Of a DNA stretch of 46,206 nucleotides, positions 43,819 through 43,878 are shown one piece after another; the stretch's first letter is position 1, and each line of letters begins with the position of its first letter. The notes under the pieces were generated by a model, which saw only the letters and a list, made by a program, of their open reading frames with translations, was not told the origin of the DNA and did not search any database. This DNA comes from Escherichia phage mEp332. Where the stretch lies: the sequence record PV340541; one strand, written 5' to 3'. Position numbers and translations under genes: made by a program.

Positions 43819-43878
43819 GTCTCGAAAACCGGAGTAGGGGCAACTCTACCGGGGGTTCAAATCCCCCTCTCTCCGCCA
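43819..43878 (+). other. 3' two-thirds of a class II tRNA-Ser gene (serU-like, CGA-anticodon type): anticodon loop to CCA; att-site-like remnant, not a functional tRNA
   Basis: GTCTCGAAAACCGG-AGTAGGGGCAACTCTACC-GGGGGTTCAAATCCCCC-TCTCTCCGCCA: anticodon loop, long variable arm, T arm, acceptor 3' strand with G73 and CCA; no 5' half upstream. Confidence 0.7.

Follow-up and report, generated by a model that had tools for sequence, protein, structure and literature searches.

Why should a phage that integrates with the lambda recombinase carry, in its b region, the 3' part of a host tRNA gene? The question arises for Escherichia phage mEp332 (PV340541), whose 46,206-nucleotide sequence (referred to here as the window) is a phage genome opened at attP. 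The phage's own integration module is accordingly found at the two ends of the window:

2–16, plus strand: lambda att core GCTTTTTTATACTAA, followed by the lambda P' arm (exact pattern, window start)
90–1160, minus strand: lambda integrase, the present integration enzyme (phmmer, PDB lambda Int chains, E about 1e-236)
45907–46206, plus strand: P arm of lambda/434 type, part of the attP that the phage itself uses (90% identity to phage 434/HK106 sequence beside att)

The reading frame at 90–1160 matches lambda Int over its full length with 4 differences in 356 amino acids, and together with the lambda core and the P and P' arms it makes up the sole integration module that we could confirm in the window, in agreement with the lambda Int and lambda-type attP of the initial annotation. 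An Rfam match to Lambda_thermo, the cIII thermoregulator (88.5 bits, 5644–5702, minus strand), fits a lambda-type early region.

The tRNA-derived segment lies far from this integrase, and alignment identifies it as nucleotides 31–90 of K-12 serU, tRNA-Ser(CGA).

43819–43878, plus strand: att core, the 3' 60 nt of serU in its bacterial-type sequence (60/60 to K-12 serU)

Starting with the final two bases of the 5' strand of the anticodon stem, it takes in the anticodon loop, long variable arm and T arm and ends in the 3' acceptor strand and its CCA; the loop, both arms and the acceptor 3' end had been proposed from the letters alone. It is identical to the host gene at all 60 positions. The 5' half had been described as missing, and this holds when the flank is inspected: the 30 nt upstream of 43819 have no similarity to serU nucleotides 1–30 by alignment, ARAGORN made no tRNA calls over the whole window, and Rfam at E≤1 did not call a tRNA at 43819–43878. 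With neither a 5' acceptor strand nor a D arm, the segment cannot form the complete cloverleaf of a functional tRNA-Ser; it is not a gene, and the phage does not need it for its own integration. The window holds no second copy of the core, and a 32-nt probe taken from the segment occurs once in the window and not at all in 100 shuffled versions.

Rfam gave two other matches, both uninformative. One is a T-arm-sized match to tmRNA, and the other, a sub-threshold match to Plastid-psbl-rps4 at 43824–43875 on the minus strand (40.9 bits against a gathering score of 68), is by our reading an antisense likeness to tRNA-Ser and no genuine element.

Lambdoid phages often bear tRNA genes, and the segment might be taken for the decayed remains of one, or for a tRNA-like stretch that arose by chance. 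Neither origin is at all credible: the identity is 100% over 60 nt and continues into host intergenic DNA, no chance matches were obtained, and the site lies in the b region beside att and not at the usual tRNA position between Q and S.

What the segment represents becomes apparent from the DNA on its two sides.

42376–42957, plus strand: tail fibre assembly gene (tfa), the last phage structural gene before the relic junction (Pfam Caudo_TAP; collinear with the STEC384 serU prophage)
42958–43818, plus strand: phage (P) arm of a serU-integrating lambdoid phage (match to the right end of the STEC384 prophage)
43732–43749 and 43787–43804, plus strand: two 18-nt direct repeats, TAAyTCwTTGATTTTTCG, 55 nt apart (repeat search)
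43879–44156, plus strand: captured host DNA, the B' arm, corresponding to the first 278 bp of the serU–yodB spacer (ungapped K-12 alignment)

On the left, positions 32696–44156 (tail genes, lom, stf, tfa and an 860 bp non-coding arm) are collinear at 93–97% with the right end of the prophage that occupies serU in STEC384, and 42171–44156 matches that end at 97.3%. At its end the STEC384 prophage has this arm and then the 60-nt segment and spacer as in the window, except that the spacer continues into yodB; at the opposite end of the prophage are an intact serU and a tyrosine integrase, the P' arm and integrase gene following the tRNA end at attL, with the integrase gene starting 27 bp beyond. 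The partial record SerU-LTIIb (KU052038) also has this right end; its annotation gives the fragment as a tRNA-Ser pseudogene, and yodB comes next. The P arm is found at the serU attR of other genomes, including an estimated 700 or so further records (by spread sampling), and is absent from genomes with an empty site.

On the right, core and flank together are 96.7% identical to K-12 over 338 bp, ungapped, and this identity stops abruptly at 44156. The flank is the host DNA that adjoins the tRNA gene in the empty-site genomes K-12 and JNEC-KY178, and nearly every complete E. coli genome matches precisely 43819–44156, this same end being seen in more than 5,400 genomes. With a serU-type arm on the left, the serU core in the middle and host spacer on the right, the stretch 42958–44156 reads as an attR-type junction of phage arm, core and bacterial arm, left as a fossil in the b region. 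The tRNA part, identical to the host gene from the anticodon stem onwards (60/60 from nt 31), and the left flank, which is the arm seen at the right end of prophages in that same gene, both have the form expected of an attR.

The attR sites that lie in place at serU provide the closest comparison (STEC384, SerU-LTIIb, the Sp14-like espJ/tccP prophage of O55:H7 and the e14-like prophage of MB15). They agree with the window in the core boundary and host flank, and their P arms are of the same type or a related one. They differ in lying at serU itself, each with its attL and cognate integrase, and in running on into yodB; the copy in the window sits within a phage bounded by lambda att and carrying lambda Int, and its host sequence ends after 278 bp. 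Since it is off the serU locus, has no second core and has no serU-type integrase, of which tblastx found no trace or remnant within the window, we regard it as a relic and not as a working prophage end. The initial annotation had suggested a fossil of a tRNA-Ser-integrating element, left by recombination or imprecise excision, and these comparisons sharpen that suggestion to the attR junction of a serU prophage.

A phage arm with repeated 18-mers next to a complete core could also be read as a second functional attP, by which the phage would be able to integrate at two loci, serU included. An attP would have phage DNA on both sides and an integrase gene adjacent, and here the right arm is host DNA and not a phage P' arm, and the window has neither a serU-type integrase nor a remnant of one. 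The variable arm of the core also speaks against this reading: it has an A..T pair, the bacterial form, as does the attR of STEC384, and not the compensatory G..C pair that the phage supplies to the tRNA variable arm at the STEC384 attL. A second attP is therefore very improbable, and we retain the interpretation as a relic attR.

The rebuilt serU genes at the STEC384 attL (extracted locus 14079–14168) and in 2013C-3264 (9300–9359) both show the corresponding change from A-U to G-C in the variable arm. As this change comes from the phage copy of the serU 3' segment, lysogeny slightly rewrites the host tRNA.

Several smaller features of the arm and core can be described from these alignments. 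The motif TGATTTT, contained in the 18-nt repeats, recurs in another serU P arm and in inverted form in the P' arm of the STEC384 attL, and the repeats are candidate arm-type binding sites of the serU-type integrase. The window-type arm (P1) and the Sp14-type arm (P3) are otherwise unlike, and have in common about 50 nt adjoining the core (match from query position 248), which would fit conserved binding sites for one integrase family. In other copies the core reaches serU nucleotide 29, or nucleotide 25 where an e14-like arm is undiverged. Position 43818 is C in the window and G, the tRNA-like base, in IAI1, PhiR70_1, ev099, 2013C-4974, 2013C-3264 and the in-situ STEC384 copy; no other copy examined has this single-nucleotide change, by which the anticodon-stem inverted repeat of the core is weakened in its left half. 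Some genomes have a much shorter serU 3' fragment, about 14 nt of tRNA (match beginning at 43865), that leads into the same host flank and bears no tRNA annotation; presumably these are attR sites of a different element class, one using a short core at the serU 3' end. Within the 3' part of tfa there is also a full-length Rfam match to IS009 (RF02111; 42719–42917, plus strand, 227 bits against a gathering score of 117).

Beyond the host flank the window contains a regulatory gene set among insertion sequence debris.

44157–44211, plus strand: final 55 bp of an IS630-family (ISEc33-like) element with its right inverted repeat (matches to 3' ends of annotated IS630-family transposase genes and to their terminal repeat)
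44463–45206, plus strand: AraC-family regulator, probable orthologue of PatE (z0321) (Pfam HTH_AraC/HTH_18)
45248–45613, minus strand: IS2-like transposase remnant with integrase core domain (Pfam rve/rve_3; annotated as a partial transposase in IAI1 and PhiR70_1)
45701–45993, plus strand: IS3-family orfA remnant at the right edge of the shared cassette (matches ISEhe3 orfA in SfIV; open reading frame 45758–45979)

From 43816 to 45684, the AraC gene included, the window is 98.8% identical in nucleotides to its counterpart in the thrW prophage remnant of O157:H7, and homology with an argW-integrated sister phage in 2013C-3264 stops at 45993. The protein-cluster names for the AraC gene say only 'AraC family'. 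PatE is z0321 on OI-8, an AraC-like acid-resistance regulator of O157:H7 (PMC10877973), and the gene at 44463–45206 is probably its orthologue, judging from synteny with the O157 thrW remnant and from that review. The best sigma-70-like match in the b region (10/12; 44400–44429, plus strand) lies past the IS630 remnant and just upstream of the AraC/patE start codon, and is a plausible predicted patE promoter. The captured flank was considered as an insulator of patE, and this idea was dropped as the prediction of intrinsic terminators was negative in the flank.

Only 0.6 kb separates the AraC gene from the core, both have the same orientation, and islands typically contain IS debris. The AraC gene and IS remnants might on these grounds have stood beside serU in the donor chromosome and have been taken with the tRNA fragment in one imprecise excision, which is how the initial annotation had accounted for them; that the exact donor lineage is unsampled leaves some room for this. 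Against it, chromosomal identity ends at 44156 within the end of the IS630 remnant, and the DNA beyond the IS is unlike the serU–yodB spacer. As the join of host and IS sequence falls inside the IS630 remnant, it is an illegitimate junction and not an insertion boundary. Moreover, in all contexts inspected the AraC gene occupies a prophage b region (attλ, thrW or argW) and in none of them is it placed between serU and yodB, and part of its upstream region is also found without the serU piece. With host identity ending after 278 bp, the extension of the captured DNA to an island is unsupported, and the expectation that the AraC gene and IS would be found next to serU-like loci is not borne out in these contexts. 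We consider an island origin of the AraC gene and its surroundings unlikely, and favour capture of the attR junction and its short host flank alone.

The junction between the IS630 remnant and the patE gene is present in approximately 556 of 5,426 complete E. coli genomes, about a tenth, O157:H7 among them. At least 80% of 43560–44460, which extends from the window-type arm to the start of the AraC gene, is covered in 101 complete genomes, and 152 carry the whole b region. That the structure is an artefact of assembly or annotation, in which the serU locus was fused to a prophage, has almost nothing to recommend it beyond the general richness of prophage regions in repeats, given these 101 genomes and its presence in the independently sequenced phages ev099 and PhiR70_1.

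Copies of the cassette lie at three attachment sites. Those at attλ are in IAI1, 2013C-4974 and the sequenced phages ev099 (Radostvirus) and PhiR70_1; those at thrW are in HB-Coli0 and E8, in a pin/GIY-YIG myovirus-type prophage with its own thrW integrase, and in O157:H7, where the copy is decayed; and the argW copy is that of 2013C-3264, in a lambdoid prophage with IntS/TorI. Wherever its context was examined, the AraC gene belonged to a prophage b region at one of these sites, with no example adjoining serU in situ. The thrW phages have another left arm before the cassette, that of the GIY-YIG/pin myovirus, joined at the same tRNA position; since this arm is found in situ beside yodB in 13 genomes, it is a genuine serU phage arm. 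The recurring order is an old serU arm, the core, the host flank, patE and IS debris, and a new att/int module. Whether the thrW copies are nested prophages was examined in HB-Coli0, where a lone, complete myovirus prophage carries its own thrW integrase and so is not nested.

The junction at 44156/44157 is identical in all cassette copies examined. The flank of the cassette has a haplotype defined by eight diagnostic sites between 44026 and 44104, the O157 copy having one extra change at 44041; this haplotype differs from those at the in-situ serU loci of K-12, STEC384, O55:H7 and SerU-LTIIb, and is largely found in situ in the spacer of JNEC-KY178. The common junction and haplotype indicate a single capture of the host DNA, its source being an E. 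coli lineage that had this type of spacer. No donor genome was found that has the exact flank haplotype together with an IS630 at that position. Exact-pattern searches gave 0 matches in IMG/VR (flank/IS630 junction) and 0 in GTDB species representatives (flank/IS630 junction and flank haplotype alike), so that no donor outside E. coli and no additional phage contigs were recovered.

Taken together, the segment is very probably the core of a relic attR, derived from a lambdoid prophage that was integrated at serU and carried along with 278 bp of host DNA by an illegitimate event. A lambdoid prophage would have integrated into the host serU, its tyrosine integrase crossing over in the anticodon stem-loop. 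An illegitimate event would then have brought attR and the first 278 bp downstream of serU into a phage genome with loss of the int side, either by an aberrant excision of the lambda-bio type or by an equivalent illegitimate crossover that joined the host flank to phage DNA. The original serU int and att would have been replaced, in this phage by lambda Int and an attP situated immediately past patE and its IS debris; IS remnants lie where the modules join. The cassette of core, flank, IS630 remnant, patE and IS2 and IS3 remnants would subsequently have spread by recombination among phages of at least three integration specificities, either homologously, through the 338 bp common to every serU attR, or site-specifically at the core. 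The sequences themselves establish what the three junction parts are, the single origin of the cassette, its spread and one prophage nested at the site; both the type of illegitimate event and the order of events are what we infer. Because there are only 278 bp of host DNA and these end in IS debris, the original illegitimate junction may have been overwritten, and aberrant excision is indistinguishable from other illegitimate recombination.

Lambda-bio specialised transducing phages carry a P.B' hybrid att site and the adjacent host DNA. The window resembles these in that a packaged genome contains a prophage right junction with contiguous host DNA and lacks the original integrase side. It differs in having just 278 bp of host DNA and no host gene, in the burial of the join in IS debris, in the new int/att module that directs integration to another site, and in that aberrant excision is here an interpretation. 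The relic is an unusually clean natural record of the pickup of host DNA at an attachment site followed by a change of integration specificity, all three of its parts being readable at 96–100% identity, and it marks the left border of the patE cassette.

As the core is complete, phages carrying the cassette may be able to receive serU-type phages at a site other than serU. We looked for such events with a hybrid sequence that joins the window-type P arm and the core to a serU-phage P' arm. This led to strain 2013C-3264, where a 50-kb prophage, running from a serU-type integrase to espJ/tccP, is situated exactly at the relic site of the argW-integrated sister phage. The left junction of the 50-kb prophage consists of the P1 arm, then a core bearing the phage-type G..C pair, and after it the P' arm and integrase; its right junction consists of a P3 arm (O55:H7/Sp14 type), a core with A..T, the host flank, the IS630 remnant and patE. 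Integration at native serU gives this same pattern of G..C on the left and A..T on the right. The argW phage that hosts the insertion is 97–99% identical to the window over the aligning stretches, cassette included, and the composite is bounded by argW and dsdC, so that no chromosomal rearrangement is involved.

The window thus has a host-chromosome-derived attachment sequence inside a phage genome, and in one genome another phage is present at that sequence with attL- and attR-type junctions; the right-hand nested junction occurs in 1 of 5,426 complete genomes, 2013C-3264 alone. This is good evidence, from the arrangement of the junctions, that the relic can act as an attachment site for a serU-type integrase, and the nesting in 2013C-3264 was probably integrase-mediated. 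We note that the identical sequence would also be expected from a misassembly or from RecA-dependent crossing-over within the 60-bp core. In the nested prophage, the serU-type integrase gene has a frameshift according to its annotation. The same annotation is seen in three unrelated strains, namely STEC384 (extracted locus 14196–15246), 2013C-3264 itself (9387–10437) and 2013C-4991 (7287–8337).

Sites of this general kind have been described in prophages of STEC and EPEC, where attB sequences derived from yecE, ykgJ/ecpE and ompW are found within prophages with 81–87% identity to the chromosome, near lambdoid prophage ends and beside cargo genes (Nakamura 2021, PLoS Pathog, PMC8112680). Recombination shares these sites among prophages and other phages integrate there, giving 'prophages integrating into prophages' (PMC8112680); serU does not appear in the text of that paper. 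The relic is similar in being a host-derived core, here beside patE, that is common to several phages and is occupied by a serU-type prophage in 2013C-3264. It differs in being derived from a tRNA gene, in being much younger (the core is 100% and the flank about 96% identical to the chromosome), in keeping the P arm of its former owner, and in that its occupancy is seen in one genome only. Being still joined to that P arm, it shows its origin as an attR explicitly and is not a mere attB-like patch. Host-derived attB sites inside prophages are already published, and the serU site would be an additional member of the class without a new mechanism.

Because the complete serU core is kept, phages with the cassette would offer serU-type phages a second landing place. 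Whether the relic is in general a live and portable docking site for these phages, including effector-carrying Sp14-like phages with espJ/tccP, is a proposal that we make tentatively and regard as somewhat doubtful. If it is correct, prophages could nest and travel together, the site would mediate exchange of the patE acid-resistance cassette among phages with different integrases, and it would be a fourth attB-in-prophage member, tRNA-derived and evolutionarily young. The serU site may in this way join a short list of host-derived sites in prophages that enable stacking of prophages and accumulation of virulence genes.

Other arrangements of stacked elements were seen among the loci that we extracted. 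In O157:H7 TT12A (extracted locus approximately 11,110–11,190), a thrW 3' fragment ending in GGTCGTAGGTTCGACTCCTATTATCGGCACCA directly follows the patE cassette and is itself followed by a second tyrosine integrase and P4-like genes, indicating that elements lie in tandem at thrW in this strain. In O55:H7, a prophage with its right end at native serU has a P-core-P' junction at its left end, an arrangement that would fit a tandem array at that locus. In 2013C-4991 (extracted locus 4803–7001), a lambdoid prophage with three DUF1076 genes, which we take to encode NleG-type effectors, leads into a P1-like arm, the core, a P' arm and a serU-type integrase, and this stretch is another prophage-to-prophage junction.
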